Assembly: GCA_052145175.1 (NCBI GenBank)
Contig: JBKQPD010000259.1
Span: 25,972 to 49,971, forward strand
Direction of reading: 5' to 3'
Origin: Candidatus Binataceae bacterium
GTDB taxonomy: Bacteria > Desulfobacterota > Binatia > Binatales > Binataceae
DNA: 24,000 bases
In this document: positions 8,433 to 24,000 of the stretch, in pieces
How the letters are laid out: each line of letters starts with the position of its first letter
Numbering within the stretch: position 1 is the stretch's first letter
Program-made: the position numbers and the translations under genes
Notes under the pieces: generated by a model
Databases searched by the model: none
Told to the model about the DNA's origin: nothing
The model's input: only the letters and a program-made list of their open reading frames with translations

Positions 8433-9940
8433 TGCGCGTGGATGAAACCAGGACTATCGCGGACCTTCTTGCCACCGGCGAACCAGCCCGAGCCGCTTTG
8501 ATCGGGACCCAGCCGGACCGGGTACTCACCTATGGTGAATTGCGGGCGCAGGTCGCAAGTCTGACCGGCCAGTTGCTCGCGAGCGGGCTCGAGCCCGGCG
8601 CGCGGGTCGCGATCATCCTGCCGAACGGTCCCGAATTCATCGTCACCTTTCTAAGTGTCGCCGGTGCGCGCCTGACCGCCGCGCCATTCAACGCCGCGCA
8701 GGTCGCGGAGCTCGCCGCGCTGTGGACGGACGCCGGGATTCGCGCCGTGATCGCGGCGGCGGAAGATCGCGGGACCCAGGCTATCGCGACGCGTCTCGGA
8801 CTCCCGTTCTGGGCGTTGGCGGTCGATTCCGCGGGGCGGGTGCGGCTCGACGTTCCGGCACACGGCCGCCGTTCCGACGGAGCGCCGCGCCCGTCCGACG
8901 TCGCCCTTTTTCTCCATACGAGCGGCACCACCAGCAAGCCCAAGGGCGTGCCGCTGACGCATGGCAACCTGATGTACTCGATCGCGAATATCGCGGAAGG
9001 CTATCGCCTGACGGCTGCGGATTGCACGCTGCTGGTGATGCCGCTGTTCCACGTGCACGGCCTGATCGGCGCGACCCTCTCGACGCTGCACTCGGGCGGC
9101 ACGGTGGTAGCGCCGCCGCGCTTCAGCGCAGGCACCTTCTGGCCGACCGCCCGCGCTCATCGGGCAACCTGGTACTCGGCGGTGCCGACGATCCATCGCA
9201 CGCTCCTGCTGCGCGCCGCGACTGATGCCCCGGCGCAGAGCGGTTTCCGCTTCATCCGATCCTGTTCCTCGGCGCTCGCGCCTGCGATGCTCGCGCAGAT
9301 GGAAGAACGCTTTCAGGCCCCGGTGCTCGAAGCCTACGGGATGACCGAAGCGGCTCATCAGATTGCGACCAATCCGCTGCCGCCAGCGCCCCATAAGGCG
9401 GGCAGCGTCGGTCTGGGTGGACGAGTCGAAATCGTGATTATCGACGACCAGGGCCATATCCTGCCGCGCGGGACGGCCGGAGAGGTTGCGATCAAAGGCC
9501 CCAACGTGACGCTCGGTTACGATCAGAATCCGTCCGCCAACGCCGCCGCGTTCGTGAACGGTTACCTGCGCACTGGCGATCGCGGAGTGCTCGACGCGGA
9601 CGGTTACGTGAGCTTGATCGGCAGAATCAAGGAGCTGATCAATCGGGCGGGCGAAAAAATCTCACCCCTGGAAATCGACGCGCTTCTGCTGGCTCATCCG
9701 GCGGTCGCGGAAGCGGCGAGCTTCGGCGTGCCCGACGACAAGTACGGCGAAGAAATTTGCGCCGCAGTGGTCCTGAAGAGCCCGGCGTCCGCGGCCGAGC
9801 TCCAGACCTTTTGCCGCGATCAGCTCGCGGCTTTCAAGGTGCCCAAGGTCTTTCATTTCGTGACGGAACTGCCCAAGACCGCGACCGGCAAAGTCCAGCG
9901 CAGCGCGTTGACCGCGACGTTCGCGAACAACGCGAAATAG
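8432..9940 (+). CDS. AMP-dependent acyl-CoA synthetase, oxalate--CoA ligase-like (AAE3/Pcs60 family)
   Basis: 502 aa. AMP-binding motif FLHTSGTTSKPKGVPLTHGNL, PLFHVHGL, EAYGMTEA, GDRG, GRIKELINRAGEKISPLEID, FGVPDDKYGEE and LPKTATGKVQR. Long stretches match plant AAE3 oxalyl-CoA synthetase as I remember it. Family is confident; substrate is not. Confidence 0.85.
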   Translation: MRVDETRTIADLLATGEPARAALIGTQPDRVLTYGELRAQVASLTGQLLASGLEPGARVAIILPNGPEFIVTFLSVAGARLTAAPFNAAQVAELAALWTDAGIRAVIAAAEDRGTQAIATRLGLPFWALAVDSAGRVRLDVPAHGRRSDGAPRPSDVALFLHTSGTTSKPKGVPLTHGNLMYSIANIAEGYRLTAADCTLLVMPLFHVHGLIGATLSTLHSGGTVVAPPRFSAGTFWPTARAHRATWYSAVPTIHRTLLLRAATDAPAQSGFRFIRSCSSALAPAMLAQMEERFQAPVLEAYGMTEAAHQIATNPLPPAPHKAGSVGLGGRVEIVIIDDQGHILPRGTAGEVAIKGPNVTLGYDQNPSANAAAFVNGYLRTGDRGVLDADGYVSLIGRIKELINRAGEKISPLEIDALLLAHPAVAEAASFGVPDDKYGEEICAAVVLKSPASAAELQTFCRDQLAAFKVPKVFHFVTELPKTATGKVQRSALTATFANNAK

Positions 9941-9954
9941 TCTTCTGACACCGC

Positions 9955-10215
9955 TCAGCGAAGTTCTCGATCTTGACGAACCAATACGTCGCTCGGGACC
10001 TCAAGTCTCGGCATCGAGGCGCGTAACTCGGCTCGAGAGGGAATGCCGCGGCGAGGCTGAGCGGGCAGTATTCTGGCAAGTGGACGTCCCCTCCGCGTCA
10101 CGACGACTTCGCCGGCCTCGGCAACGAGGTCGTCAAGGTGCGCGAGTGCGGCTCGCATTTCCCGGATACTCAGTGTTTTCAAGCGACGCTCCGATGTTGA
10201 CGACACATCGTCCAT
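9955..10215 (-). CDS. Type II antitoxin, Phd/YefM (prevent-host-death) family, with no adjacent toxin gene
   Basis: LKTLSIREMRAALAHLDDLVAEAGEVVVTRRGRPLARILP is the classic Phd/YefM N-terminal domain. An alternative TTG start at 10182 has GGAG 6 nt upstream. Only 14 nt separate its stop from the convergent ligase gene. Confidence 0.7.
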   Translation of the reverse strand: MDDVSSTSERRLKTLSIREMRAALAHLDDLVAEAGEVVVTRRGRPLARILPAQPRRGIPSRAELRASMPRLEVPSDVLVRQDRELR

Positions 10216-10326
10216 GATTTGTCACATCGTCATGTAAAGGCAAGCTCGATTGCGCCGAGGTACCGGCGTTCAGGTGCGCGTCGACACAACTTGCGGGCGG
10301 ATGATTAATGCGGCTACATTCGCGGC

Positions 10327-10755
10327 ATGGATCAGCCGCTCGAGCAAATCCTCAATCTGCTGCTCGAATCCGAGCGCGCCGGCGTGGCCGCCCTGGACGG
10401 GCTGGTCGCGCAAGTCGATCACGCCGATCTCAAGCGCTTGTTGCTGACTTCAAGGGAAGACGAAGCCGCCGACGCCACGGCCCTCGAACAATTGATTCGT
10501 GGCAGCGGCGGAACGCCCTCGCCCCAGACCGGTCCGTTTGCCGCCAAGGTCGCCGCGACCGGAACCTTGCGCGAACGCCTGCAGCTTCTGATCCACGGCG
10601 AGGAGTGGGTCGCGCGGAAAATCGAGGAGGCGCTCGCGCTGGCGCCGCCGGGCGGCCCGATTCACGACTGCCTGCAAAAGATGGCCCGACGCCATCGCTT
10701 CGAGGTCGAGTGGGGCCGCGCCGAGCTGATCCGTTTGATGGATACGGTTACTTGA
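10327..10755 (+). CDS. Hypothetical helical (ferritin-like four-helix-bundle, DUF6306-like) protein
   Basis: 142-aa ORF. The N-terminal LEQILNLLLESERAGVAAL resembles the DUF6306 signature as I remember it. The all-helical composition is plausible. No clear SD. Confidence 0.5.
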   Translation: MDQPLEQILNLLLESERAGVAALDGLVAQVDHADLKRLLLTSREDEAADATALEQLIRGSGGTPSPQTGPFAAKVAATGTLRERLQLLIHGEEWVARKIEEALALAPPGGPIHDCLQKMARRHRFEVEWGRAELIRLMDTVT

Positions 10756-10789
10756 GGATTCCTCTCATGTTTGACGTTGGAGCTCGCTG

Positions 10790-11980
10790 ATGGATCTCAG
10801 CTTCAGTCCCGAAGAAGAAAGTTTCCGCGCGCGCGTGCGCAAGTTTCTCACGGAAAATCTGCCGCCCGGATGGGGTGGCGCGGGCGGCCGTCCGGCCGGG
10901 ATGACCCAGCTCGAATTTCTGCGCGACTGGCAGCGGCGCCTCTACGACAATGGCTTCCTCGGGATGTCGTGGCCCAAGGAATACGGCGGGCAGGGCGCCA
11001 GTCAGATCGAGATGGCCATTTACAACGAAGAGAGCGCGCGGGTGCGCGCACCCGGGGCGCTCAACGCTATCGGCCTTTCGATGGTCGGGCCGACGATTAT
11101 TTCGCACGGCACGAAGGAGCAGAAGGAACGCTACCTGGCGAATATTCTGAGCGGTGAGGAAATCTGGTGCCAGGGCTACTCCGAACCCAATTCCGGATCG
11201 GACGTCGCGTCGTTGACCACGCGCGCGGAGCTCAAGGGCGACGAGTTCGTGGTCAACGGCCATAAGGTCTGGACGACGCTCGCCCATCTCGCGCAACAGT
11301 GCATGCTGATCGCGCGCACCGATGCCGCCGCGCCGAAGCATCGCGGTATCTCCTGCCTGCTGATCGACATGAAGACCCCGGGCATCACCGTCAAGCCGCT
11401 GCGCCAGATGACGGGCGAGGCGGAATTCAACGAGCTGTTCTTCGACGACGTTCATGTGCCGCGGGAAAATCTGCTTGGACCGCAGAATGAAGGCTGGCGC
11501 GTCGCCACCACGACCCTGATGAATGAGCGCGGCACGAGCGCGCTGGCCAGTGTGATGCGCTACCGGATCGTTTTCGACGAGATCGTCGATTTGGCGCGCA
11601 GTACGATGCGCCACGGGCGGCCGGCGACGCAGGATCCGGTGTTGCGCCAGCGGCTCGCGCAGTTCCATGTCGATCTCGAAATGATGCGCTTTACGGCTTA
11701 TCGCACCTTCTCGAAGATTCTGAAGGGAGGCGATCCCGGCCCGGTCGGCTCGATCTCCAAGCTCGCCTGGTCGGAGCTGAATCAGCGCATGATGGAATTC
11801 GTGATGGAGGTGGAGGGCCCGGCCAGCCAGTTGATGCGCGGGTCGGCGCACGCGGTGCAGAGCGGCCGCTGGCAGCATCATTTTTTGCGCTCGCGGGCCA
11901 ATACGATCGAAGCCGGCACGTCCGAAATCCAGCGCAACATTATCGCCGAGCGCGTGCTCGGCCTGCCCAAGTCGCGTTAA
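10790..11980 (+). CDS. Acyl-CoA dehydrogenase
   Basis: 396 aa. Motifs: MDLSFSPEEESFRARVRKFL, GYSEPNSGSDVASL, VVNGHKVWTT, and a C-terminal TIEAGTSEIQRNIIAERVLGLPK with the catalytic Glu context. GGAG lies upstream. Confidence 0.92.
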   Translation: MDLSFSPEEESFRARVRKFLTENLPPGWGGAGGRPAGMTQLEFLRDWQRRLYDNGFLGMSWPKEYGGQGASQIEMAIYNEESARVRAPGALNAIGLSMVGPTIISHGTKEQKERYLANILSGEEIWCQGYSEPNSGSDVASLTTRAELKGDEFVVNGHKVWTTLAHLAQQCMLIARTDAAAPKHRGISCLLIDMKTPGITVKPLRQMTGEAEFNELFFDDVHVPRENLLGPQNEGWRVATTTLMNERGTSALASVMRYRIVFDEIVDLARSTMRHGRPATQDPVLRQRLAQFHVDLEMMRFTAYRTFSKILKGGDPGPVGSISKLAWSELNQRMMEFVMEVEGPASQLMRGSAHAVQSGRWQHHFLRSRANTIEAGTSEIQRNIIAERVLGLPKSR

Positions 11981-12016
11981 CCGAGGCGCCGCAACGCCAA
12001 GGGTATAGGAGTCGCT

Positions 12017-12490
12017 ATGCCGTTCATGTCAATCAACGATCCCGAATTCTGGAAGAACTGTCCCAAGGGTCTGGAGCTGATTCCCAAGAGCATGGAAGGG
12101 ACGGGCGGCGGCGTCGCGTATTTTGTGATGGGCGAACCGCGGGACAACGCGCCCACCGTGGTTGCGCTGCGGATGGCGCCCAACTGGGTTTTGCCGCGTC
12201 ACGCGCACGATTGCTATCGCTTCGAAGTGATCGTGCAGGGCACGCTCGACGTTGGCGAGCGGATTCTTAAGGTGGGCGACGTGATGGTCAGCGAGCCGAA
12301 CACCTTTTACGGACCGCACGTGGCCGGTCCGGAAGGCTGCACCACATTCGAGATTTTCAGCAATCACGCGGCGTCGCATGAAGCGATACTTGATTTGGCC
12401 GGCAACGTGGTCAAATTCGATGTCTCCCGGCCCGGCGAGTTCCGCCGCATGATGGAGGCGCAGCAGGCCGTTCGCACGCAGACGGCCTGA
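12017..12490 (+). CDS. Cupin-domain protein
   Basis: 157 aa. Cupin motifs PRHAHDCYRFEVIVQG...GDVMVSEPNTFYGPH. AGGAG lies 4 nt upstream of the ATG. Confidence 0.75.
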   Translation: MPFMSINDPEFWKNCPKGLELIPKSMEGTGGGVAYFVMGEPRDNAPTVVALRMAPNWVLPRHAHDCYRFEVIVQGTLDVGERILKVGDVMVSEPNTFYGPHVAGPEGCTTFEIFSNHAASHEAILDLAGNVVKFDVSRPGEFRRMMEAQQAVRTQTA

Positions 12491-12493
12491 CGC

Positions 12494-12519
12494 TCAGCGC
12501 GAGCTTCTCCGCGCGCTGA
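12494..12519. terminator. Hairpin between convergent genes (TCAGCGCG 12494-12501 / CGCGCTGA 12512-12519, 10-nt loop)
   Basis: Read from the sequence. It sits in the 29-nt gap between the cupin stop and the CMD-family stop. There is no clear U-tract. Confidence 0.35.
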
Positions 12520-13128
12520 TTAGGCTTTGGCGGCGGGGGCGGGAACCTCGCGCATCCGCGCGGTCGTGTCGTTGTCGTATTCCAGATGCAAGGCGCGCAC
12601 GACCATCCCGTGCATCCGCCAGGTCGCGATTACGAAGATCAGCTCCATGATTTGCGCGTCGCTGAAATGACGTTTCAGTGCGGCGAAAGTCGCGTCCTCG
12701 ATCAGGTTGCGGCCGACCAGCTCGTCCGTCGCGGCCATCACGGCCCGGTCGGTAGCGTCGAACAGGTCGGAGGTCGCCCAGCCCTTGATTGCTTCCAGTT
12801 GCTCCTCGGCTATCCCGACCATCCGCGCGACTTTGAGATGCTGCGAGTACTCGAACCGCGAATCACCAACGATTCCGGTGCGCAGGATCGCGAGTTCGCG
12901 ATAGCGCGGCTTCAGGACGCGCCCCGGCTGCAAGAGGGCGAACAACGAATCGTAGGACATCTTCAGGATGTCGGGTACCAGGGCGAAGGTCGTCCAATAA
13001 TCCCCCGGTGTACCGGTAGGTGTTCCCGGCGCGGCGACCGGATCGCGCTCGCCGAAGAATTGCGAGTAAATCTTGCGAATCTCAGGCGATGCTTCGGTGA
13101 GGCTGACCTGCTTGAGCCGATTCCCCAT
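12520..13128 (-). CDS. Carboxymuconolactone decarboxylase (CMD/AhpD-like) family protein
   Basis: 202 aa. RELAILRTGIVGDSRFEYSQHLKVARMVGIAEEQLEAI is a typical CMD-domain helix pattern. GGAGGG lies upstream of the ATG. Confidence 0.75.
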   Translation of the reverse strand: MGNRLKQVSLTEASPEIRKIYSQFFGERDPVAAPGTPTGTPGDYWTTFALVPDILKMSYDSLFALLQPGRVLKPRYRELAILRTGIVGDSRFEYSQHLKVARMVGIAEEQLEAIKGWATSDLFDATDRAVMAATDELVGRNLIEDATFAALKRHFSDAQIMELIFVIATWRMHGMVVRALHLEYDNDTTARMREVPAPAAKA

Positions 13129-13213
13129 GACGATCCCTCCGCTGTGATGTGGCCGATGCAGCCCGACCCTTCCACAGGACGGCGCTCAGCTCAAGCGGAC
13201 GGGAGGGGGCGCG

Positions 13214-13507
13214 TCAGGAACCCGGGGTGGCGGTCCGTTTGCGCCATTCGGTCTCGGCGATTTCACCGCGCGCCAGGGCGCAGCAGTCGGGGCACAGCAG
13301 GACCAGGGATTCCGGACTCACGCGCCCTTCGTGAGCCTCTTCCCGCTGAAACAGTGGGGCCAGGCGGCGCGACCCCGAAGCCGGACGCGAGCACAGCTCG
13401 CATTGCAACCACGAGGGCGGGGTCTTTTCGAGCACCGCGTTCGATCCGATCCCGGTCTGAACCCGATCACTCGCCGGAACTTCTGCGCCAGGCTTGGGAG
13501 AAAGCAT
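13214..13507 (-). CDS. Small Cys-rich hypothetical protein (CxxC ... CPDCC; zinc-ribbon or degenerate HNH-like)
   Basis: 97-aa ORF in an otherwise empty 530-bp gap. Third-codon positions are strongly G/C-biased over most of its length, which favours coding. Motifs: LQCELCSRP...AHEGRVSPESLVLLCPDCCALARGE. No SD lies before the first ATG, so the start is uncertain. Confidence 0.3.
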   Translation of the reverse strand: MLSPKPGAEVPASDRVQTGIGSNAVLEKTPPSWLQCELCSRPASGSRRLAPLFQREEAHEGRVSPESLVLLCPDCCALARGEIAETEWRKRTATPGS

Positions 13508-13635
13508 AAAAGGAACTAACAGCAGCTTGCATGCCGTGCCACCGATCGGTCAAGACAATATTTAGTGACGCTTATCCGTCGACTGCGCCGTCTCGACATG
13601 CAAACTGCTGTTGCGTTTCTGTAACAGTGTTACCT

Positions 13636-13655
13636 AATCCGCGCCAACGCGGATT
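13636..13655 (-). terminator. Stem-loop AATCCGCG-ccaa-CGCGGATT immediately 3' of the racemase gene
   Basis: 8-bp perfect stem with a 4-nt loop, starting 5 nt after the stop at 13660. There is no U-tract. An adjacent palindrome GTAACAgTGTTAC lies at 13621-13633. Confidence 0.35.
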
Positions 13656-13659
13656 GTGT

Positions 13660-14814
13660 TCAGTCCTTCGGCGTGGCGATCGCCCCGCAGCCGCGAAGCT
13701 GTTCGAGGTCCGTCGCGCTGAAACCCCAGTCGCGCAGCGCCTCCTCCGTATGCTCACCCGGCCGGGCCGGCGGCCGTTGAATCGCGCCGGGAGTCCGGCT
13801 GAAGCGCGGCGCCGGCGCCGGCTGGACCACGCCGTCCCGTTCGACGAAGGTTCCGCGCAGCTTGTTATGCGGATGATGGGGCGCCTCGGCCATGCTCAGC
13901 ACCGGCGCGAAGCAGATGTCGCTGCCCTCCATGATCTTGCACCACGCGTCGCGCGTTTTGGTGCGGAACAGTGTGGCGACCCGCTCCTTCATCTGGGGCC
14001 ACGCCTTGCGGTCATTCTGCGGCGCCAATTCCTCTTTCTTCAGTCCCGAGAGCCTGAGCAGTTCGTCGTAGAACTTGCCTTCGATCGAGCCGATCGAGAC
14101 ATACTTGCCGTCGCTGGTCTCGTAGACGTCGTAATAGTGGGCGCCGGTATCGAGCACGTTCGCGCCGCGCTCGTCGGTCCAGAAGCCGGCCCCGTGCATC
14201 CCATAGATGGCGGTCATCAGAGACGCGGCGCCGTCGACCATGGCGGCGTCGATTACCTGACCCTTACCCGATTTTTGCGTTTCGAGCAGGCCGGTCACCA
14301 CGCCGAAGGCGAGGTACATCGCGCCGCCGCCAAAATCGCCAACCAGGTTGAGTGGAGGGACGGGCGCCTGACCGCGCCGGCCAATCGTGTTCAACGCGCC
14401 CGACAGCGCGATATAGTTGATGTCGTGGCCGGCGGCTGCGGCGAGCGGGCCTTCCTGACCCCAACCGGTCATCCGGCCGTAAACCAGACGCGGATTGCGG
14501 CCGAGGCAGACGTCCGGTCCGATGCCCAGCCGTTCCATCACGCCGGGACGAAAGCCCTCGATTAGGGCGTCGGCGCGCTCCACGAGCCGCAGGACGGTGG
14601 CGATTGCCTCGGGCCGTTTCAGGTCGAGCGCGATCGAGCGACGGCCGCGATTAAGCAGGCTGTACTTGGTCTGCAACGAGATCCCGAGCCCCGCGTCGGC
14701 CGTGCGATCGATCCGCAGCACTTCCGCGCCCAGATCCGCCAGCAGCATCGCGCACATCGGCGCCGGTCCGATCCCGGCAAGCTCGATTATCTTGTAACCG
14801 TTGAGCGGTCCCAT
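13660..14814 (-). CDS. mcr: Alpha-methylacyl-CoA racemase (family III CoA-transferase fold)
   Basis: 384 aa. [64 protein letters not shown] and [16 protein letters not shown] are colinear with M. tuberculosis MCR, including the catalytic His (GHDINY) and Asp (GDFGGG) contexts. GAGGTG lies upstream. Confidence 0.85.
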
Positions 14815-14921
14815 GATTCACCTCGACTGGTTTCGCAGCAATTTTCCGCATCCAACCTTAGCATAAGAGCGTAAGAGCAAAAGGGGCGCGGGTGTACACC
14901 CGGCAACTGCGTTCGTCAGCT

Positions 14922-15434
14922 TCAGGGCGAGCCGTTGCCGGAAGCCGGCGCGGCAGTGGCGTGTTGGTAGATTATCGCGACGGCGTTGAGAATCCGGCCT
15001 TTGTGCCCCTCTTCGCCAACCTCGGCATCGTGTTCGCTCGAGCTGTCATCGGCGCCGCCCTCCGCTCCGGCGCCCTTGCCCCCCAACGGTTTGCCACGCT
15101 GCTGCCGCTGGTCCTCGAGCACCACCAGGGCGTCGGCGCCGGTTTCACAGGCCTTGCGCCGAGCCAGACCGTAGATTTCCTGGTTGTCCGCATTGTAATC
15201 ATCGCTGACCTCGATGATCGCAATCTCCTGATAGTCGGCATTCGGCAGCGCGGACAGCGTCGGTAGCGGACAATCGAAGGGTTTCGCGGCGCGGGTTCGC
15301 GGCGCGAGCCAGCTCACCGTGGTCTCCGGAGGATCCTTCTGCGCCGCGCAGCTCGACAGCGTCGCGATGATCGCGGCAATCGCCGCTCCGCTAATCCACT
15401 TGGCCGCCTTACTGATCGCGCACCGTGTTTTCAT
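14922..15434 (-). CDS. Small lipoprotein (hypothetical)
   Basis: The internal ATG at 15434 gives MKTRCAISKAAKWISGAAIAAIIATLSSC with lipobox LSS|C. The 70-aa upstream extension in the track has no signal-peptide logic. The mature part has an acidic, Gly-rich insert. Confidence 0.65.
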   Translation of the reverse strand: MKTRCAISKAAKWISGAAIAAIIATLSSCAAQKDPPETTVSWLAPRTRAAKPFDCPLPTLSALPNADYQEIAIIEVSDDYNADNQEIYGLARRKACETGADALVVLEDQRQQRGKPLGGKGAGAEGGADDSSSEHDAEVGEEGHKGRILNAVAIIYQHATAAPASGNGSP

Positions 15435-15548
15435 CGAGCTTCCCGCGGGTGTGAACCGCCCCTTGTCCGCATGCATAGAAGGAAAAGATCGCATACGTTG
15501 AATCGTTATAGTAGAGCGTTTACAAACTAGCGGAGCGAGACGGGATAC

Positions 15549-15577
15549 TTGACGCTCGATCGCAGGTCGATCATAAC
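15549..15577 (+). promoter_or_regulatory. Candidate sigma70-like promoter for the LLM oxidoreductase gene (-35 TTGACG, 17-nt spacer, -10 CATAAC)
   Basis: Hexamer match only. It lies about 80 nt upstream of the ATG at 15656, in the divergent intergenic region. Confidence 0.25.
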
Positions 15578-15655
15578 GCTGAGGGTGGCGGTCGTGCGCG
15601 GTCGGGCTCAGGGTCGTCGCGGACAACGGGCAAAACTCTGACAAAAAGGAAACTC

Positions 15656-16729
15656 ATGAACTTCGGACTGCTGATGGCGTTTCGGAACCCGCCACCAACC
15701 AAGACGCCGTTCACGGAAATCTATGGTAAGCATCTCGACCTTGCGGTGGAAGCCGAGGAGTTGGGCTACGATTCGATTTGGCTGACTGAGCATCACTTTG
15801 TCGACGACGGTTACTCGCCGTCATTGCTGCCGATCGCCGCCGCGATCGCCGCCCGCACGAAGAAAATCCGTATCGGCACCTTCGTTATTTTGCTGCCGCT
15901 GCACAATCCGATTCGAATCGCGGAGGACGCCGCGACCGTGGACATCCTTTCCAACGGCCGTCTCGACCTCGGTTTCGGCCAAGGGTATCGGGTGCCGGAA
16001 TTCACCGGCTTCAATATTGCGCGGAAGGAGCGCGGTCCGCGGCTCGAGGAGAACGCGGAAATCGTGCGGCGGCTCTTCACCGAAAAGAATCTCAGCTTCA
16101 ACGGCCGTTTCAACCAGATTGCCGGCGCGACCCTGACGCCGGGTGCGGTCCAGCGTCCCCATCCGCCGATCTGGCTGGCGGCGCGCGGGCCCAAATCGAT
16201 CGCGCGGGCGGCGCGCAACGGTTACCATCTGATGGGCACCGGCGGCGTCGATCAGCAGCAGACGTACGACGCGGCGCTGCGCGAAGCCGGCCGGAATCCC
16301 AAGGATTACCATATCGCCCAGCTACGCACAGTGTTTGTCGCGCCGCGCCGCGCGGCCGCCTGGGACGCCGCGGAAGCCGGGGCACACTACATCATGAGCT
16401 GTTATGGCAAATGGTTTGCCGAGGCGAACGATCTGCCGGGCGACGCCGGCTTCGCCGCGAACCTCCCGCCGGTCAAAAAGCTGCGTGACGCGGAAACCGC
16501 GGCGCTGTTCGGTGAGCCGCTGATTATCGGCACGCCGGACGAGGCGATCACGATGATCGAGGATTATCAGGCGCGCAGCCGCGTCACTCATCTCGTGATG
16601 GCGACCGTGCTGCCCAAGACCGATTTCAAAAAGGCGAGCGCAAGTCTGCGGCTCTTCGCCAAAGAGGTGATGCCGCATTTTCGCCGCAAGGCCCGCGCGC
16701 AGGCGCGCCCCAAACGTGCCTCCCGCTAG
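15656..16729 (+). CDS. LLM-class (luciferase-like) flavin/F420-dependent oxidoreductase
   Basis: 357 aa. MNFGLLMAF...AEELGYDSIWLTEHHF...RLDLGFGQGY...PHPPIWLAA is a typical luciferase-like monooxygenase family pattern. AAGGAA lies upstream. Confidence 0.88.
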   Translation: MNFGLLMAFRNPPPTKTPFTEIYGKHLDLAVEAEELGYDSIWLTEHHFVDDGYSPSLLPIAAAIAARTKKIRIGTFVILLPLHNPIRIAEDAATVDILSNGRLDLGFGQGYRVPEFTGFNIARKERGPRLEENAEIVRRLFTEKNLSFNGRFNQIAGATLTPGAVQRPHPPIWLAARGPKSIARAARNGYHLMGTGGVDQQQTYDAALREAGRNPKDYHIAQLRTVFVAPRRAAAWDAAEAGAHYIMSCYGKWFAEANDLPGDAGFAANLPPVKKLRDAETAALFGEPLIIGTPDEAITMIEDYQARSRVTHLVMATVLPKTDFKKASASLRLFAKEVMPHFRRKARAQARPKRASR

Positions 16730-17189
16730 CCGGGTCGGGAACGCTCCGCCGTCGCGGGTGCTTTCCCGCGCGCTCGCGACACTGGGTGCGGCGCTGCTGA
16801 TGAGCCTCCTCGCGGCCTGCTCGTCCGAAGTTGAACCGCAAGAGCCGCCGCCGCAGCCGCAGCAGGCGATCATCAAGGTGCCCGACAAGGCGCTGGACCG
16901 CGAGCGTCTCCAGGTCCAGACGGGCAATCTTGCGCTGCCCTATGATCAACTGGGCGAACTCGAGTACACCGAGCCATTTTCGCCACGGGCGATCGACGAC
17001 GACTATATCGACGACAAGCTGCGGGCGATGGCGATGCAAAGGTGGGGCAATCAGGTTGACGCGGTTATTGACGTCAAGACCGCGCTCAGTTCCGACGAGA
17101 GTGAGGTGAGCGTGACGGCGCAGGCCGTCAAGGTCCGCGGCGATTGCTCGTTCTGCCGCCATCAAGGTGGCTATCCGACCGGCCAGTGA
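16716..17189 (+). CDS. Small lipoprotein (hypothetical)
   Basis: Signal peptide with lipobox LAA|C (LSRALATLGAALLMSLLAACSSE). The start is GTG 16716, which overlaps the LLM gene by 14 nt, or in-frame GTG 16758. The core resembles the 14922-15434 lipoprotein. Confidence 0.6.
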   Translation: MPPASRVGNAPPSRVLSRALATLGAALLMSLLAACSSEVEPQEPPPQPQQAIIKVPDKALDRERLQVQTGNLALPYDQLGELEYTEPFSPRAIDDDYIDDKLRAMAMQRWGNQVDAVIDVKTALSSDESEVSVTAQAVKVRGDCSFCRHQGGYPTGQ

Positions 17190-17197
17190 CGAAGTTC

Positions 17198-17671
17198 TTA
17201 TTTCGCGGGAGTGTCTTTGGCGGAGCGTTTGGCAGCCGCCCGCCGGCGTGCGTAAACCGCCGGATCGGCGAGCGGAGAATGGCTGTGCTGATGTGCCGGG
17301 GTCTTTTCGACGGGCGTTCCGCGCTTTTGCTGCTGGTCCGTCCGTGCCGCGACGGTGTCGTCGTATTCCGCCCCCCGACCGTGCAGGTAGGCCGCATAGC
17401 GCGAGGTCGTTGGTTGATCCATCCAGCAGAGTTGCGCCGGCGGTGGCACCCTCAAGCGCGTCACATCCGACCGGGTTGCCGCCGACGGCGCGGGTGGGGC
17501 TTCGCGCGTAGCCGCATCCCCGCCGCGGCCGAAGACCACGGCTGACAGCATCCGCCGCGCGCGCCGGCCGCATCCGGGACACGGATGGCTCCTGGTGGCC
17601 GACTCGCGCAACGACGCGAGTACCTCAAACGTTGCGTCGCAATGCCCGCAATAGCACTCGTAGAGTGGCAT
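17198..17671 (-). CDS. FmdB-family zinc-ribbon protein with a long C-terminal extension
   Basis: The ATG at 17671 gives MPLYECYCGHCDATFEVL...HPCPGCG, the FmdB/CxxC-CxxC signature. It starts 11 nt after the lactonase stop. At about 157 aa it is longer than the usual 70-110 aa. Confidence 0.7.
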   Translation of the reverse strand: MPLYECYCGHCDATFEVLASLRESATRSHPCPGCGRRARRMLSAVVFGRGGDAATREAPPAPSAATRSDVTRLRVPPPAQLCWMDQPTTSRYAAYLHGRGAEYDDTVAARTDQQQKRGTPVEKTPAHQHSHSPLADPAVYARRRAAAKRSAKDTPAK

Positions 17672-17682
17672 TCGATGAAATA

Positions 17683-18453
17683 TCAGTCGATGCGGTGTGG
17701 ATGTTCCTTCCAGTCCTCGGGGTCGTGCGTGATCCACATCGTCGCGCCCTGCATATCGCGGATCATCTTGATGCGCTGGAGCGACCTGATCGACTGGGTC
17801 GGATCATAGTCGATACCCATTGTCGCCCCGTTCTCCACCGCGGCGCGCAGATGCGCGGTGTCGCCGGTCAGCAGGAACTTGCGATTGGGCAGATTGACCA
17901 GCACCGAGCATTCGCCGGGCGTATGACCAGGGGTCAGCAGAAACTGGATCGCGCCGTCGCCGAACAAGTCGAAATCCCCTGCGAGCTCCAACCAGTCGTA
18001 ACCGCGCGTCGGCAGGAAATCGTTCAGGATAAACCCCCAGCGCCGATCGGGATCGGGCCAGTAGGCGTAACGCAGTTCATTCGCGCCAACCAGGAACTTG
18101 GCCTTGGGAAAATAGGTGAGGCCGCCCGAGTGATCGAGATGGGAGTGCGAGAGGATGACGTACTTGATATCGGAGGTCTTGTAGCCGACCCCTTCGATCT
18201 GCTTGTCGAGCGTATCGGCCTTGTTCCATTTGACGGGCAGGGCCTGCGCCACTTCACCCCAGTAGCCCACGGCGTCATCGATGATTTTGGCGTTGCAGCC
18301 GGTATCGAACAGCACCAAGCCCTTCGGATGTTCGATCAGGAACGAGGGACAGGGCAGTTGCAGCAGTTCATCGCTCCCGCCGTGCATCAGAAGTGACGCC
18401 GGAGCGGTCAGTTCCGCGCCCGGCAGCGCCCACATTTTTTTTGCTGTCGCCAT
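17683..18453 (-). CDS. MBL-fold lactonase (N-acyl-homoserine-lactonase / 4-pyridoxolactonase-like family)
   Basis: 256 aa. Metallo-beta-lactamase motifs SHSHLDHSGG (HxHxDH), TPGHTPG, TGDTAH and ITHD. GGAGA lies 8 nt upstream of the ATG. Confidence 0.85.
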   Translation of the reverse strand: MATAKKMWALPGAELTAPASLLMHGGSDELLQLPCPSFLIEHPKGLVLFDTGCNAKIIDDAVGYWGEVAQALPVKWNKADTLDKQIEGVGYKTSDIKYVILSHSHLDHSGGLTYFPKAKFLVGANELRYAYWPDPDRRWGFILNDFLPTRGYDWLELAGDFDLFGDGAIQFLLTPGHTPGECSVLVNLPNRKFLLTGDTAHLRAAVENGATMGIDYDPTQSIRSLQRIKMIRDMQGATMWITHDPEDWKEHPHRID

Positions 18454-18580
18454 GGGGAATCTCCGTTGCTTGTTGCGACGACTGCCTCGCCTGCCGAGGC
18501 CCAGCGCCGTGGCCGTGGTTCGGCATATCTCTAACTGTCAGAAGATCAATTTGCAACCGGCGCAGCCAAACCCTGACCGC

Positions 18581-19207
18581 TTAATCAGGTTTGCTGGACG
18601 CGAGGGTCAGCGGCGCCGCGCGCAGCGCCTCGGCGGCCAGGGTCCGGGCCTGAAAAAGACAATAGACCACTGCGACGATCAGAATGATCGCGGCCACGGT
18701 CAGCGGCGCGACCAGCGGATGCCACCAGGCGCCGACTTCCAAATCAAAATGAACGCGATAGACCACCGGGACCGTGCCGATCGTCAGCATCGCGCTGTAC
18801 GCGCCGCTCGCGAGGTCGGTCTGGACGTCGATTACGCCTGACGGATAACGTCGCGCGGGAATCGAGACGCGCCGCGTTCCACCGTCCTGCGCGATTTCGA
18901 CCGCGACCGGCGCATTCGTTAGATCGCTCCCGACCAGATCGAAGACCAGCAACGTCCGGCCACCCTGGGGAACGCTGCCGCAGTATTCGGCGAAGCGATT
19001 GAACTCGGGCTGATAAGCGGAAAAATGTACGTAATTGTTCAGCCCGGCCCATTGGGCGCAGGGGTCATAGTCCAGCCCCGGACCGCCACCGTGAGCCCAG
19101 ACCTGACGCGGGAGGATCGCCGTCGCGATCGCGATTAACATTGCCGCCGTGACCAGCGGACGGAGGCGGCGGCATGTGCGCGGCTTGCGGTGATTGCGCT
19201 TCGTCAT
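18581..19207 (-). CDS. Fourth gene of the CuMMO operon: secreted, C-terminally membrane-anchored protein (PmoD/AmoD-like architecture; homology unverified)
   Basis: The ATG at 19207 shares its A with the pmoB TGA (TGATG). It encodes MTKRNHRKPRTCRRLRPLVTAAMLIAIATAILPRQVWA|HGGGPG..., with predicted cleavage leaving an N-terminal His. A beta-rich domain of about 130 aa with two Cys follows, then a C-terminal TM helix (LVAPLTVAAIILIVAVVYCLF). The 52-aa upstream extension in the track would overlap pmoB. Confidence 0.7.
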   Translation of the reverse strand: MTKRNHRKPRTCRRLRPLVTAAMLIAIATAILPRQVWAHGGGPGLDYDPCAQWAGLNNYVHFSAYQPEFNRFAEYCGSVPQGGRTLLVFDLVGSDLTNAPVAVEIAQDGGTRRVSIPARRYPSGVIDVQTDLASGAYSAMLTIGTVPVVYRVHFDLEVGAWWHPLVAPLTVAAIILIVAVVYCLFQARTLAAEALRAAPLTLASSKPD

Positions 19208-20469
19208 CACAACTCGCCCACCAGATGGCCGGTGAAGGTCGGCACGATCGAGCTGCTGAACTCGACGATCGAACGCTTGCCGGCCGGATCGAAGAACATG
19301 AAAAGGCCGCCGATCCGGCTGGTCGGATCGCTCATCAGCGCGGTCAGCCGATCGGTCTCCCACACGGGGCTGGTCGCCTCGAGATACATCTCGATACTTT
19401 CGCCGGCCGCGATCGGACGGTTTGGCTGCACGAGCAGTCCGGCCGGCGCCAGCAGATCCGGCGGATAGTCGGGATCGGCGCGGGAGACGCTGGCGTTCAG
19501 GAAGCGCAGATTCGCCGTCGTGAACTCGCCCAGCCGGACCGGTTGCGCACCGTGATTGGTCACCCGCAGATGGAACTGGACCGTGCGCCCGGGTACGAGG
19601 TAGGTCACCGTTTCGGGCTCGATCGTGACGCCAGCTGGCGGCTCGTCGAGCGCCGGAACCTTGGTCTGATGGGACTGCAGGGGAATCGTCACCGGGTTGG
19701 CGACGTTGGTAACGGCAAACGCGACAATCGCTGTTACCAAGGTTGCCGCGAGCATCACCGCCGCCATCATGCGATCACCGCGCGTGATCAGCCGGTCGCC
19801 CTCGCCCGCCTGCACCGCCGCGTAACGCGGCATCAGCAGCGGCTTGCGGATCCAGTAGCCCAGCCAGACGAGCGCGAGCGCAACCCACACGAGATGCCAT
19901 CCGATCACGATCCGCAGGCCGTAACTCGCCAGGTTGAGCCGCCGGCCGGTCAGCGTCGTGACCCAGTCGTCGAAGCTCGCCGGATCGCCCACCACGGTCA
20001 CCCACTGGCCGGGTCCGAGAATCGCGCCCGCGTCGAGCACGTCAAGCATCGGATGGACGTGATAGCGGCCCGGCAGACGTCCACGCAGCACGATGCGGTA
20101 GGCGTAGTCGCCGCCCAGCTGCAGGGCCATCGAGGAAACCCCGTTTACCCCGTTGACCTCGCTCTCCGCGCGCGTAAAGACCGGGCCGGGTACGCCCACG
20201 TTGAGAAAGGTCAAGGTTGTGGGCGAGGGAATTTCGAGCGGCCAGCTCCCCATGATATGAAAGCGGCCGGTGACCACCAGCTCCTGATTGACGCTGACCC
20301 GCTGCGACGACCAGGTCGTGTCATACCATTGGATCGTCGAGAGCCGCAGCGAGGGTTCCTGCGCGCGTTCGCCGTGGGCGTATGCGATCGCCGGCAGCAG
20401 CATCGCGCAAACCAGGATGAGCAGCGCGCGACGCGCGGCGGCCCGGCAAGTTGTGCATGAGCGAATCAT
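19207..20469 (-). CDS. pmoB: Copper membrane monooxygenase subunit B (PmoB/AmoB-type)
   Basis: 420 aa. The signal peptide ends AYA|HGERAQEP, giving an N-terminal His. Other motifs: GRYHVHPML (His137/His139 context), two central TM helices, VTIPLQ, and RLGEFTTANLRFL plus a C-terminal cupredoxin region. It is colinear with M. capsulatus PmoB as I remember it. Confidence 0.93.
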   Translation of the reverse strand: MIRSCTTCRAAARRALLILVCAMLLPAIAYAHGERAQEPSLRLSTIQWYDTTWSSQRVSVNQELVVTGRFHIMGSWPLEIPSPTTLTFLNVGVPGPVFTRAESEVNGVNGVSSMALQLGGDYAYRIVLRGRLPGRYHVHPMLDVLDAGAILGPGQWVTVVGDPASFDDWVTTLTGRRLNLASYGLRIVIGWHLVWVALALVWLGYWIRKPLLMPRYAAVQAGEGDRLITRGDRMMAAVMLAATLVTAIVAFAVTNVANPVTIPLQSHQTKVPALDEPPAGVTIEPETVTYLVPGRTVQFHLRVTNHGAQPVRLGEFTTANLRFLNASVSRADPDYPPDLLAPAGLLVQPNRPIAAGESIEMYLEATSPVWETDRLTALMSDPTSRIGGLFMFFDPAGKRSIVEFSSSIVPTFTGHLVGEL

Positions 20470-20500
20470 TGGTATCGGCGCAACCTTCCGGCGCGTCAGC

Positions 20501-21265
20501 TCAAATCTTCTTGAACCACGAGAACTGGCTTTTCACGAACAGCCAGCCGACGCCGACAAAGACCATATAGACGACGATCGACATGAAACCGGCAAAGGCG
20601 ACTGAGAGGTAGACGGGGTCCTGACCGAACGTCCGCAGCGTCCCCCGATTGATGATCCTGATGTACTCGGGCGTGCCGGTCCGGATGTAATGAAAGCCCT
20701 GCAGATCCGCGAGCGACATCAAGGCGCCGTGGAGATTCACCGGGGCGAGAAACGGCGCGATCAACGGCCAGTTGGCGAGGTAGAAGACCACCCCCCACAG
20801 GAAGCCCCCGACGATTCCCGCGATGAGAATACTGTCGGTCAGGAGCAACGTCGTATCGAGGGCGAGCCCGCACGGAATCAGGGTCGCCGGCCAGATGAAA
20901 TTCAGCGGAAAGTAGGCCCAGCCATGCATGTTAAGGACGCGATTCAGCCATTCGGCGGCGACCAGGCTGAACGTCAGGAAAGTCGCGGCGAAGGGCAGGC
21001 GGAAGCGCGACCAGAAGATAAATAGGATCGCCGACGGCATCGCGATTTCCACCACCGGCGTGAAAGAAAGCCACCAGCGGCTGTCTTTCCAGTCGTCCCA
21101 GAAATCCCAGTCGCCCACCGTCAGCATCGTGGCGACGTGGTAGAGCCCCATGAAGAGGAAGAACAACAGGATCGCGACGACCAGATCGAAGCGGCGATAG
21201 ACGCGATTCCGTTCTTCGGGCGTGACGGTTGCCGGCGCGGTCCGCGCGCGAAGAGAAGCCGCCAT
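20501..21265 (-). CDS. pmoA: Copper membrane monooxygenase subunit A (PmoA/AmoA-type)
   Basis: Motifs YHVATMLTVGDWDFWDDWKD, NWPLIAP and IRTGTPEYIRIINRGTLRTFG match the PmoA/AmoA hallmarks. The ATG at 21265 is preceded by GAGG 7 nt upstream. The track start at 21268 is GTG. Confidence 0.95.
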   Translation of the reverse strand: MAASLRARTAPATVTPEERNRVYRRFDLVVAILLFFLFMGLYHVATMLTVGDWDFWDDWKDSRWWLSFTPVVEIAMPSAILFIFWSRFRLPFAATFLTFSLVAAEWLNRVLNMHGWAYFPLNFIWPATLIPCGLALDTTLLLTDSILIAGIVGGFLWGVVFYLANWPLIAPFLAPVNLHGALMSLADLQGFHYIRTGTPEYIRIINRGTLRTFGQDPVYLSVAFAGFMSIVVYMVFVGVGWLFVKSQFSWFKKI

Positions 21266-21281
21266 CACGAGACCTCGCGCG

Positions 21282-22115
21282 TCAGGAAGCTTCGCGCTCG
21301 AAATCCAGCGCCGGGTCGTGGGCGGGACCGTCGGTCCCCTCGTAAGTCTGCGCGCGGCCCGTCGTCAGCTCATGGATATAATCGCAGACCTGCATCAGGA
21401 GTCCGCCCAAGCCCAGCCCGGCCCATGCGAAAATCACGAACCACCAGTGGACCGGCGCGGCGAACCGCTCTTCGAGAATCCAGAAACTGTGTGCCCATTC
21501 GTTGAACGCCACCACTGGCAGCAACATGAAGGGTCCCGCGACCGCGATCACCCACGGGAGCGAGTGGCGCGCGCCGAAACGCGGCAGCCGGGTCATCCCG
21601 TACAGGTACGACGTGATCCCGAGAATGATGTAGACCGGAAAAGCCCAGTAGAAAAGGATGATATGGCTGGGGGTGAACGACGTATCGCGCACCACCGTCT
21701 GATGCCAGCTCGCGTCTTCCTCGGCAAAGAAGCTGGCCGCCCAGAAGACCGCAAAAACGTAGAGAAAGATCAGGCCAATGAAAACGCCCAGCCGCCGGAG
21801 CTCCTCGGTCGCTTCAACCCGGCTCAGATCCCGGGGGCGCGAAAACCAGACGTAGCCCCAGATACCGGCGGCGGCAACGGCTTCGACGGCAAACTGACTG
21901 AACAGCAGGTTCATCCAGTACTTCTGGAATTCGGGCGAGGTCGAATCGAGACCCATGCTCCACGCGTACTGTTGCTGATAGAGGCGCGCCGCCACCATCA
22001 GCTTGGCGATTATGCCGCATCCGATCGCGATGAACGACGGATTAATCCACTGGACCTCGGTCCCGGCGCGGACCGTGGCATCGTTGACTTTCGTTGTGTT
22101 TAACAGTGTCGCCAT
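21282..22115 (-). CDS. pmoC: Copper membrane monooxygenase subunit C (PmoC/AmoC-type)
   Basis: Motifs DSTSPEFQKYWMN, EELRR, FAEEDASWHQTVVRDTSFTPSHII and NEWAHSFWILEERFAAPVHWWFVIFAW carry the Asp/His/His and Asn/His/His ligand contexts of PmoC. The ATG at 22115 is preceded by AGAGG 6 nt upstream. The track start at 22121 is TTG. Confidence 0.95.
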   Translation of the reverse strand: MATLLNTTKVNDATVRAGTEVQWINPSFIAIGCGIIAKLMVAARLYQQQYAWSMGLDSTSPEFQKYWMNLLFSQFAVEAVAAAGIWGYVWFSRPRDLSRVEATEELRRLGVFIGLIFLYVFAVFWAASFFAEEDASWHQTVVRDTSFTPSHIILFYWAFPVYIILGITSYLYGMTRLPRFGARHSLPWVIAVAGPFMLLPVVAFNEWAHSFWILEERFAAPVHWWFVIFAWAGLGLGGLLMQVCDYIHELTTGRAQTYEGTDGPAHDPALDFEREAS

Positions 22116-22174
22116 CGGCAACCTCTACGCGCGTGCAAAGCTCAAAATTCGCCAGGTGACTAAAATTCTTAACA

Positions 22175-22190
22175 CTTGAATTAATTCGAG
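22175..22190. promoter_or_regulatory. Near-perfect 16-bp palindrome CTtGAATTAATTCgAG (perfect core GAATTAATTC 22178-22187); candidate operator
   Basis: Read from the sequence. It lies in the AT-rich part of the pmoC / beta-propeller divergent region and overlaps the predicted transcription start of the candidate pmoC promoter. Confidence 0.3.
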
Positions 22191-22219
22191 CTTATATTCC
22201 CAGTTCCCGCCAAAGGCAA
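22191..22219 (-). promoter_or_regulatory. Candidate sigma70-type promoter for pmoC (-35 TTGCCT, 17-nt spacer, -10 TATAAG, read on the minus strand)
   Basis: Hexamer and spacing match. It would give a 5' UTR of roughly 75 nt. On the plus strand a TTGACG (22221-22226) sits back-to-back with it as a possible -35 for the divergent gene, but with a weak -10. Confidence 0.35.
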
Positions 22220-22296
22220 CTTGACGCGCGGTCGCTATCCGCGCTACGCGAAGCTCAAGGGTCTGCTTTTCCCGACCAACCTTGGAGGACATTGAG

Positions 22297-23619
22297 ATGG
22301 CGCAATCATCGAATCGCTATAGCGGCCAATCGACCAGCGTGGCCAGCGGATGGAAATGTACGCAATTGACGCCGCCGAGCGCCCTGTTTGGCGCGAACGG
22401 GATGCGGCTGGGGCCCGACGGCCGGCTCTACGTCGCGCAGGCCTTCGGCAGCCAAATCAGCGCGGTTGATATAGTGACCGGGGCGGTCGAGGTTATCAGC
22501 CCCAAGGGCAGCCCGATCGTCGGCCCCGACGACCTGGCTTTCGATTCCAAGGGGACCCTCTACATCACCGAAGTCATGAGCGCGCGAGTCTGTGCGCGGG
22601 CGCCGAACGGCGAACGGCGGATCATTGCGGACAATGTGTTGGGCGCCAACGGTGTGACGATCCAGCAGGATCGCATTTTCATGGACGAATGCCGCCCCGG
22701 CGGCCGGCTGTGGGAGTTGTACGCCGACGGCCGCGCGCCGCGGATGCTCGCCGACAACCTGCCGCTGCCCAACGCGCTCCGGCTCGGACCGGACGGCAAT
22801 ATCTATTTCCCCGTGCTCGGCGAGAACGCCATCTGGCGGATCCCGCTCGCTGGCGGCAAGCCTGAGCCGTTCGCCAAGGACCTCGGACTGCCCACCGCGG
22901 TCAAAATCAACAGCAAGGGCGAGGTCGTCTCGACCCAGGCTGCCACCGGCGAGATTCTCAAGATTGATATCCGCAGCGGCGCCAAGCGGGTCCATGCCAA
23001 AGTCCGGCCGGGACTCGACAATCTTGAGGTCTCAGCCGACGACCGGATCTTCATCTCGCACTTTACGGACGGCGGCGTGGCCGAGCTGATGGCCGACGGG
23101 AGCGAGCGGCGCCTGATCGACCCGGGCTTCTGCGGACCGGCGGGCCTGGCCGTCGGCACTGACGGGACCCTGTACGCCAGCGACGGTATCAGCATGGCGG
23201 CGGTCGCGCGCGACGGCTCGCAGCATCGGGTCGGGATGCTGTTCGACGGGCACTTCCCGGGTTTCGTGCGCGGGTTGGCGGCGGCGGCCAACGGCAATGT
23301 CGTCGTGACGACCTCGGCCGGCGACGTGACGACCTATCATCCGACGTCACACGAGATGACCGAACATGCGAAGGGTCTGCAGGAGCTGTACGGCGTGGCG
23401 GTCGGGCCGGGCGGCACGATCGTGGTCGCGGAAGGCGGCGCCGGTCGCGTGCTGGTGATTGCCGGCAAGGAGGTCAAGACCGCCGCGACCGGGCTCGCGC
23501 GTCCGAGCGGAGTCGCGGCCGCCAACGACGGGTCATGCTTTGTGAGCGCGGCCGGCGCGGGCCGCCGGAATATGGGGGGGGCGCCGACCGAGATGGGCGG
23601 CGCCCCGCTTGATCTCTGA
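22297..23619 (+). CDS. NHL-like multi-bladed beta-propeller protein; the 3' end appears non-native or truncated
   Basis: GGAGGA lies 7 nt before the ATG at 22297. About 10 repeats of the type P-x-G-[LV]-A-x-x-x-D-G-x-[LI]-Y-[VI]-x-[DE] are visible (PDDLAFDSKGTLYITEV, PAGLAVGTDGTLYASDG, LYGVAVGPGGTIVVAEGG). The last blade breaks off after ...NDGSCFVSAAGAGR. It then runs through a G8 tract and a GC hairpin as RNMGGAPTEMGGAPLDL*. No signal peptide. Confidence 0.7.
   Translation: MAQSSNRYSGQSTSVASGWKCTQLTPPSALFGANGMRLGPDGRLYVAQAFGSQISAVDIVTGAVEVISPKGSPIVGPDDLAFDSKGTLYITEVMSARVCARAPNGERRIIADNVLGANGVTIQQDRIFMDECRPGGRLWELYADGRAPRMLADNLPLPNALRLGPDGNIYFPVLGENAIWRIPLAGGKPEPFAKDLGLPTAVKINSKGEVVSTQAATGEILKIDIRSGAKRVHAKVRPGLDNLEVSADDRIFISHFTDGGVAELMADGSERRLIDPGFCGPAGLAVGTDGTLYASDGISMAAVARDGSQHRVGMLFDGHFPGFVRGLAAAANGNVVVTTSAGDVTTYHPTSHEMTEHAKGLQELYGVAVGPGGTIVVAEGGAGRVLVIAGKEVKTAATGLARPSGVAAANDGSCFVSAAGAGRRNMGGAPTEMGGAPLDL
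23515..23565. repeat. Left arm of a 51-bp inverted repeat (1 mismatch at 23549) shared with 23950-24000
   Basis: GCGGCCGCCAACGACGGGTCATGCTTTGTGAGCGcGGCCGGCGCGGGCCGC equals the reverse complement of 23950-24000 except C/A at 23549/23966. The arm reaches the window edge, so it may be longer. Confidence 0.9.
23578..23606 (-). terminator. GC-rich hairpin (GGGGCGCCG 23578-23586 / CGGCGCCCC 23598-23606, 11-nt loop) just 3' of the minus-strand propeller gene
   Basis: 9-bp perfect stem, starting 14 nt after the minus-strand TAG (23620-23622). It lies inside the odd C-terminal tail of the plus-strand ORF. Confidence 0.4.
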
Positions 23620-24000
23620 CTACGCGCGGCGGAAGGCGAGGATGCTGCCTTCGGCGTCGGCCGCCACGTAGATCGTTCCGTCGTGCGATTGCGCGATCCC
23701 GGCGAACGGAGTCAGGGGACCCGGCAGCAGGCCCGGGATACCCGCCAGCACGTGCGGAATCACCCCGAGCGGCGCGCCGACCGGCAGATTCGAGGCGACC
23801 GTCTCGCGCTGGCGCGTCTTGGTCGAGAAGCACACAAGTTCATGCGCGCCGGCGTCCACGATATACAGATCGTCGCCATCCAGCAGCAGCCCTTGCGGCT
23901 CCTTGAGACCGCCCACCGCTTCGCCGACGCCGCCGTTGATATGCACGACGCGGCCCGCGCCGGCCTCGCTCACAAAGCATGACCCGTCGTTGGCGGCCGC
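23620..24000 (-). CDS. C-terminal part of a paralogous NHL-like beta-propeller protein (5' end beyond the right window edge)
   Basis: The frame is open from 24000. It reads AAANDGSCFVSEAGAGRVVHINGG...PQGLLLDGDDLYIVDAGAHELVCF...AQSHDGTIYVAADAEGSILAFRRA*. The first 17 aa duplicate the plus-strand gene (one A/E difference), and the rest supplies the blades that the plus-strand copy lacks. Confidence 0.75.
   Translation of the reverse strand, partial: AAANDGSCFVSEAGAGRVVHINGGVGEAVGGLKEPQGLLLDGDDLYIVDAGAHELVCFSTKTRQRETVASNLPVGAPLGVIPHVLAGIPGLLPGPLTPFAGIAQSHDGTIYVAADAEGSILAFRRA
23950..24000. repeat. Right arm of the 51-bp inverted repeat (pairs with 23515-23565)
   Basis: See the left arm. The unique spacer between arms is 23566-23949, which is 384 bp or exactly 128 codons. 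Confidence 0.9.

Follow-up and report, generated by a model that had tools for sequence, protein, structure and literature searches.

The right-hand end of a 24,000-nucleotide (nt) stretch of DNA from a Candidatus Binataceae bacterium (contig JBKQPD010000259.1, positions 25,972 to 49,971; hereafter the window) carries a beta-propeller gene, next to a pmoCAB-like copper membrane monooxygenase operon, that appears to face a partial, inverted copy of itself. We conclude that this end of the window is most probably a fold-back (duplicated-inversion) chimera arising from sequencing or assembly rather than a real genome feature. The sequence consists of two pieces and changes strand at a single junction, where there is microhomology, and an error-rich zone is confined to the join. 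We infer that the chimera arose in vitro. The real locus is very likely a single, ordinary 532-residue beta-propeller gene that has its own Rho-independent-type terminator and is divergent from pmoCAB.

The window ends in an inverted repeat. Its 51-nt arms, at 23515-23565 on the plus strand and 23950-24000 on the minus strand, are reverse complements of each other with a sole mismatch at 23549/23966; the right arm is clipped at the window edge at 24000, so that 51 nt is the length visible here. When up to three mismatches were allowed, the left-arm sequence was found at two sites in the window, the two arms themselves, and at no others. None of 100 dinucleotide-preserving shuffles contained a match (expected number 0.00). 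Both arms encode the peptide AAANDGSCFVS[A/E]AGAGR in frame. The left arm is the native place of this sequence within the gene, and the right arm is the same stretch of gene met again on the opposite strand, with the native Glu codon.

The plus-strand open reading frame (ORF) starts with the ATG at 22297 and stops at 23619. Its genuine part comprises the first 423 codons of the propeller gene (22297-23565), is native and collinear with the near-identical contig L006 described below, and ends with AAANDGSCFVSAAGAGR. A tail of 17 residues, RNMGGAPTEMGGAPLDL, and the stop codon follow at 23566-23619. On the minus strand this same interval is the native 3' flank and terminator hairpin of the gene, met here in backward order, and the read-through tail is not real coding sequence but simply the opposite strand of the terminator region. 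On the minus strand, 23620-24000 encodes AAANDGSCFVSEAGAGR, then 109 residues (VVHINGG...AFRRA), then a stop. These last 109 codons and the stop occupy 23620-23949 in inverted orientation, are 100% identical to the corresponding sequence of the native contigs L006, L008 and L009, and have a GC-rich hairpin 3' of the stop.

An initial annotation of this DNA, made from the letters of the window, had described the repeat with its one mismatch, the shared in-frame peptide and the 17-residue read-through tail, and all three descriptions hold, the repeat lying far beyond chance expectation. It had also placed the minus-strand tail and the hairpin after it correctly, while counting 110 residues where there are 109 and a stop. 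Joined to the 423 plus-strand residues these give exactly 532 residues, which matches the length of the family, and not the 533 implied by the earlier sum of 423 + 110. The spacer between the arms does measure 384 nt, as had been stated, yet its description as exactly 128 codons has no meaning, since it is made up of 330 nt of coding sequence (109 codons and the stop) and 54 nt of 3' flank.

The native form of the locus was recovered from contigs of nearly the same sequence. An exact match to the window's PmoB was found in five contigs from NCBI metagenome assemblies, whereas exact-sequence searches with the truncated propeller (440 and 445 residues), with the window's PmoC and with a 30-mer of the spacer, the last in collections of genome and metagenome contigs, returned no match. 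The 146-kb contig L006 is 99.93% identical to window positions 9207-23565 (10 mismatches in 14,359 nt), L008 and L009 are likewise near-identical, and all three encode the same PmoB as the window. Each of the three carries an intact, collinear 532-residue gene that is followed by the terminator and then by an acetyl-CoA hydrolase gene, and beyond the hydrolase gene their order of genes is the one seen in more distant relatives.

The anatomy of the junction was worked out by BLAST and by base-by-base comparison with the native contigs. Window positions 9207-23565 correspond to L006 21263-6905, and window positions 23566-24000 correspond to L006 6521-6955 on the opposite strand. From 23598 to 24000 (403 nt) the window is 100% identical to L006, L008 and L009. 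The only join without a native counterpart is 23565/23566 (feature 23561-23566, to which no strand applies). At this point the gene's GCCGGCGCGGGCCGC (23551-23565) meets the reverse complement of the sequence just beyond the native terminator, GCCAGCGCACGCCGC, with which it agrees at 12 of 15 positions; the exact part of this imperfect inverted repeat is the last 5 nt, GCCGC, at 23561-23565. The chimeric join reads GGCGCGGGCCGC followed by CGGAATATGG, where the native gene continues from the same point as GGCGCGGGCCGC followed by GTCGTGCATATC, and the native passage from terminator to downstream sequence reads CCATATTCCG followed by GCGGCGTGCGCTGG. The window thus runs forward to codon 423, jumps 384 nt downstream to the other strand, and comes back through the terminator, the tail of the gene and codons 407-423.

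Three other descriptions of the join were considered and set aside. A simple inversion between short repeats is ruled out, as the sequence past the right-hand copy of the 15-mer (23950-23964) is the reverse of the gene and not the downstream gene. The 15-nt exact overlap hinted at by BLAST proved to be a match of 12 in 15, with 5 nt exact. A chimera of two strains had been suggested by BLAST figures for the right-hand piece of 100% with L009 and 98.7% with L006. It was rejected because from 23598 onward the window matches each of L006, L008 and L009 base for base; the lower figure for L006 is due to the junction zone only.

Comparison with more distant relatives led to the same native arrangement. 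The contigs with the closest homologs, L001-L005 (approximately 77-87% nucleotide identity over the aligned stretches), each have one intact 532-residue gene beside pmoCAB and then unrelated genes. In total 32 loci were compared, 22 of which were contributed by a scan of GTDB species representatives. A complete gene is present at 27 of the 32, with its head and tail collinear on one strand and overlapping by the 17 residues of the arm, and no second or inverted copy of the propeller was found at any of these 27. The 15-mer at the end of the arm occurs once per native locus, and the native contigs contain one copy of the arm. At L031 (6001-7473), the propeller gene was matched as many short pieces in different frames, which suggests indel errors or a pseudogene.

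The protein scores above the curated Pfam cut-offs for both SGL (PF08450, 38.4 bits; cut-off 26.3) and NHL (PF01436, 43.8 bits; cut-off 20), and on these profile matches it is assigned as an SMP-30/gluconolactonase/LRE-like, NHL-repeat beta-propeller. Its best 120 database homologs come mostly from Candidatus Binataceae or Binatia metagenome bins and are named as members of the SMP-30/gluconolactonase/LRE family. Among these, 108 form a full-length set of 525-540 residues, nearly all of them 532-533. The window's plus-strand ORF aligns with homologs over just 95-96% of its own length because its 17-residue tail never aligns.

The window also differs from the native contigs in a way that marks the join. 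Four substitutions are found in the window only, 23549C, 23576G, 23594T and 23597G, and all of them lie within 49 nt at the join; the density of 4 in 49 nt compares with 9 in approximately 14,700 nt elsewhere (binomial P ~3e-8). At 23549 the odd base is the C of the left arm, which occurs in no other contig (L006, L008 and L009 have A), and the right arm holds the native base. The change converts Glu418 to Ala at a position that is Glu in 105 of 108 homologs. The initial annotation had taken the single mismatch between the arms as an argument against an artefact. That argument is reversed by the present data, where the odd base is unique to the window, hits a near-invariant Glu and is one of four changes crowded at the junction.

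The other three substitutions, 23576, 23594 and 23597, all fall inside the terminator hairpin. In native sequence the stem of this hairpin is a perfect 12 bp, and L005, a contig at only approximately 83-87% nucleotide identity, has the identical stem. A natural stem variant in L008 stays paired as a G.U wobble, whereas the window's change at 23597 alone breaks the stem. The A to C change at 23549 completes a perfect local 6-bp hairpin between 23548-23553 and 23560-23565, which hints at templating by a polymerase, either in a tube or in a cell. An origin of the three hairpin substitutions by template switching within the hairpin was considered and rejected, since the loop is not inverted, and 23549 alone fits a templated change. 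Additionally, contig L009, which comes from an independent assembly, begins at window position 23596, in the loop or 3' arm of this same terminator hairpin; the GC-rich hairpin would thus seem to be a place where assembly or coverage generally tends to fail.

One other base unique to the window lies away from the join, at 22003, where the window has T and L006 and L008-L010 have A. It changes Met38 of PmoC to Lys within a hydrophobic stretch, AIGCGIIA[M>K]LMVAARLY, in which relatives have Met, Leu or Ile. This base is probably a consensus error and suggests that such errors occur sporadically in this contig. The singletons at 23549 and 22003 are both non-conservative changes at constrained positions and look like consensus error. 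The differences from L006 also form two clusters, at 17486/17489/17495/17512 and at 19016/19022/19025/19028, in which seven of the eight positions lie at intervals that are multiples of three, as is usual for silent changes at a codon position. Unlike the changes of the junction zone, these clusters resemble silent microdiversity between strains or short patches of recombination.

In the in vitro origin that we propose, the 3' end of a DNA strand would have annealed at a short imperfect inverted repeat and been extended along the wrong strand, in the course of library preparation, of amplification or of long-read sequencing. The two annealing sequences would be GCCGGCGCGGGCCGC within the gene and, immediately beyond the GC-rich terminator, the partner that matches it at 12 of 15 positions. 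This 3' end could be that of a fragment whose last bases are the gene's 15-mer; an equivalent route is for a strand that stops just past the terminator to snap back onto its own upstream 15-mer. An assembler would then have extended the contig using one or a few rare chimeric reads. Ordinary reads would polish the duplicated part but not the approximately 25-30 nt on each side of the join, and we propose that the errors sit at the join because ordinary reads could not correct the consensus across it.

Artefacts of this general kind have been described. In the PDSM model (Chen et al. 2024, PMC10908179), library preparation generates chimeric reads at near-perfect inverted repeats, and the segment that separates the repeats ends up inverted. 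As in the window, the two parts of those chimeras come from opposite strands of one locus, the join lies at a naturally occurring inverted repeat with the sequence between the repeats inverted, and mismatches cluster at the join. In contrast, they were seen as reads in human capture libraries with a short distance between the repeats, whereas the structure in the window is fixed in an assembled metagenome contig and known from that contig alone, its repeat is poor (12/15, with 5 nt exact), and its halves are 384 nt apart. Fold-back reads typically make up 1-4% of long-read genomic DNA reads (Heinz, Meyerson and Li 2026, PMC12870357). In its classic form such a read joins the two strands almost perfectly and turns at the end of the molecule, while the turn in the window skips 384 nt and leaves a unique spacer.

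The structure shows every feature of a fold-back chimera that can be checked without reads. Its two pieces lie on opposite strands of one locus and each is collinear with the reference, the pieces meet at one novel junction, where there is a short inverted repeat with microhomology, and assemblies made independently from the same population lack this join. Several points weigh against reading it as an artefact. From the window sequence, which ends at 24000, an artefact and a real rearrangement are not directly separable; a genuine inverted repeat around a unique spacer would yield an assembly graph of identical topology and a contig with the same end; and template switching in vivo can also bring clustered substitutions. 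The junction 23-mer was found neither in the 32 loci nor in the JGI metagenome collection, but this strain's native sequence is missing from the latter as well, and the absence of the junction there carries little weight.

The alternative with the same geometry, which we consider unlikely, is a genuine fold-back inverted duplication confined to one strain and of the tandem-inversion-duplication or ODIRA type, in which one copy of the gene is truncated and an intact inverted copy faces it. Tandem inversion duplications occur in Salmonella. The structure is internally consistent with such an event, the A to C change at 23549 completes a local quasi-palindrome in the manner of templated mutations, and the window differs from every retrieved contig and could represent a distinct strain. 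Furthermore, the junction coincides with a short interrupted inverted repeat that was already there, as do inverted junctions formed in vivo, and in both cases the inverted duplicate faces the original. The yeast junctions of this type use interrupted inverted repeats of 2-14 bp through leading/lagging template switching (PMC10766183), with a preferred spacing of 40-80 bp that is far exceeded by the 384 nt seen here. Such duplications also have a second junction and a gain in copy number, and here the three near-identical contigs from sibling assemblies are native and lack the junction. Elsewhere in the duplicated piece the window does not differ from the native sequence at all, and a real event would therefore be very recent, yet four substitutions stand by the join, among them damaging hits on a conserved Glu and a conserved stem. 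The event would in addition have disabled one copy of the gene, which all relatives keep intact. There is accordingly only a small chance that the window records a very recent replication-fork template switch in one soil Binataceae strain, at the 5-nt/12-of-15 repeat beside the strong terminator hairpin.

The initial annotation had described two convergent paralogs and had raised three options, a recombinational switch, an inverted partial duplication and an assembly fold-back. Neither the switch nor the pair of paralogs is supported, and the data show a fold-back or inverted duplication, with two pieces of one locus on opposite strands. Hin/Gin/Cin-type invertases, shufflons and C-terminal cassette switching are known forms of site-specific inversion switch. 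A programmed invertible segment, in which a site-specific recombinase flips the 384-bp cassette and hands the C-terminus and terminator to either convergent gene, takes its appeal from the superficial geometry inside the window, where inverted arms flank a unique segment with an alternative in-frame C-terminus. It is extremely improbable. The native relatives have one arm and an unrelated gene past the cassette, and hence no pair of sites, no second gene and no alternative cassette; the native form runs into the acetyl-CoA hydrolase gene and thus is not the flipped isomer; and the arm in the window has been duplicated, rather than a segment flipped between two fixed arms. The join is marked by a 5-nt microhomology and does not coincide with the defined boundary of a repeat. 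The window's ten large ORFs (PBP2, MreB, PPIase, hydrolase, acyl-CoA enzymes and similar) include no recombinase. It had been proposed to look for one outside the window, and none is present in the 21-kb L006 gene table, which covers the native sequence on both sides. None of the three defining features of site-specific inversion that were tested (two sites, a nearby recombinase, both orientations) was found. Old convergent paralogs, one of them a truncated relic, with a common conserved stretch of 51 nt are very improbable as well. It is true that the peptide of the arms is a conserved blade motif of the NHL type, and motifs of this sort may resemble repeats. The right-hand copy (403 nt), though, is 100% nucleotide-identical to the single native gene, which is incompatible with an old paralog. 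Collinear relatives at 78-87% nucleotide identity show the pace at which the locus diverges, and no relative has two copies.

The pmoCAB-like operon lies on the minus strand, divergent from the propeller gene, with pmoC at 21282-22121, pmoA at 20501-21268 and pmoB at 19207-20469. The divergent pairing of pmoCAB and the propeller gene is kept only in the closest clade (L001-L010 and L016) and is absent from 18 other propeller loci. In the Binataceae metagenome-assembled genome L020 a distant second copper membrane monooxygenase operon (10288-13483) lies approximately 3-5 kb downstream of the propeller gene, and its proteins share 30-36% identity with the window's PmoCAB. Directly after pmoB, and overlapping its stop, is a 208-residue ORF without a Pfam match (approximately 18581-19207, minus strand; L006 11263-11889). 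A metallo-beta-lactamase-fold gene comes next, and this order is kept in L001-L004 and L006-L008. The 208-residue ORF may be an uncharacterised accessory gene of the pmoCAB operon. Long antisense ORFs lie opposite pmoB (19174-20460, plus strand), pmoC (21222-22103, plus strand) and the propeller gene (22306-22995, minus strand), and these are probably a by-product of the approximately 62-66% G+C content here rather than genes.

The main value of the present result is in quality control. Left uncorrected, the contig would be annotated as a truncated 440-residue protein and a partial convergent gene, and its fold-back could be mistaken for a phase-variation switch or a pair of paralogs beside a methane/alkane-monooxygenase-type operon. 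The comparison with near-identical contigs, the single novel junction at a microhomology and the error-rich zone confined to the junction together provide a recipe for recognising chimeras without reads. If the junction were real, a propeller gene beside a copper monooxygenase operon would have been truncated by a fold-back inverted duplication, and the window would offer a natural snapshot, from an uncultured bacterium, of the unstable first intermediate of tandem-inversion-duplication or ODIRA-type amplification; this would be a modestly interesting example of template switching and no new kind of system. The correct annotation of the locus is one intact 532-residue SMP-30/NHL propeller gene, divergent from pmoCAB.

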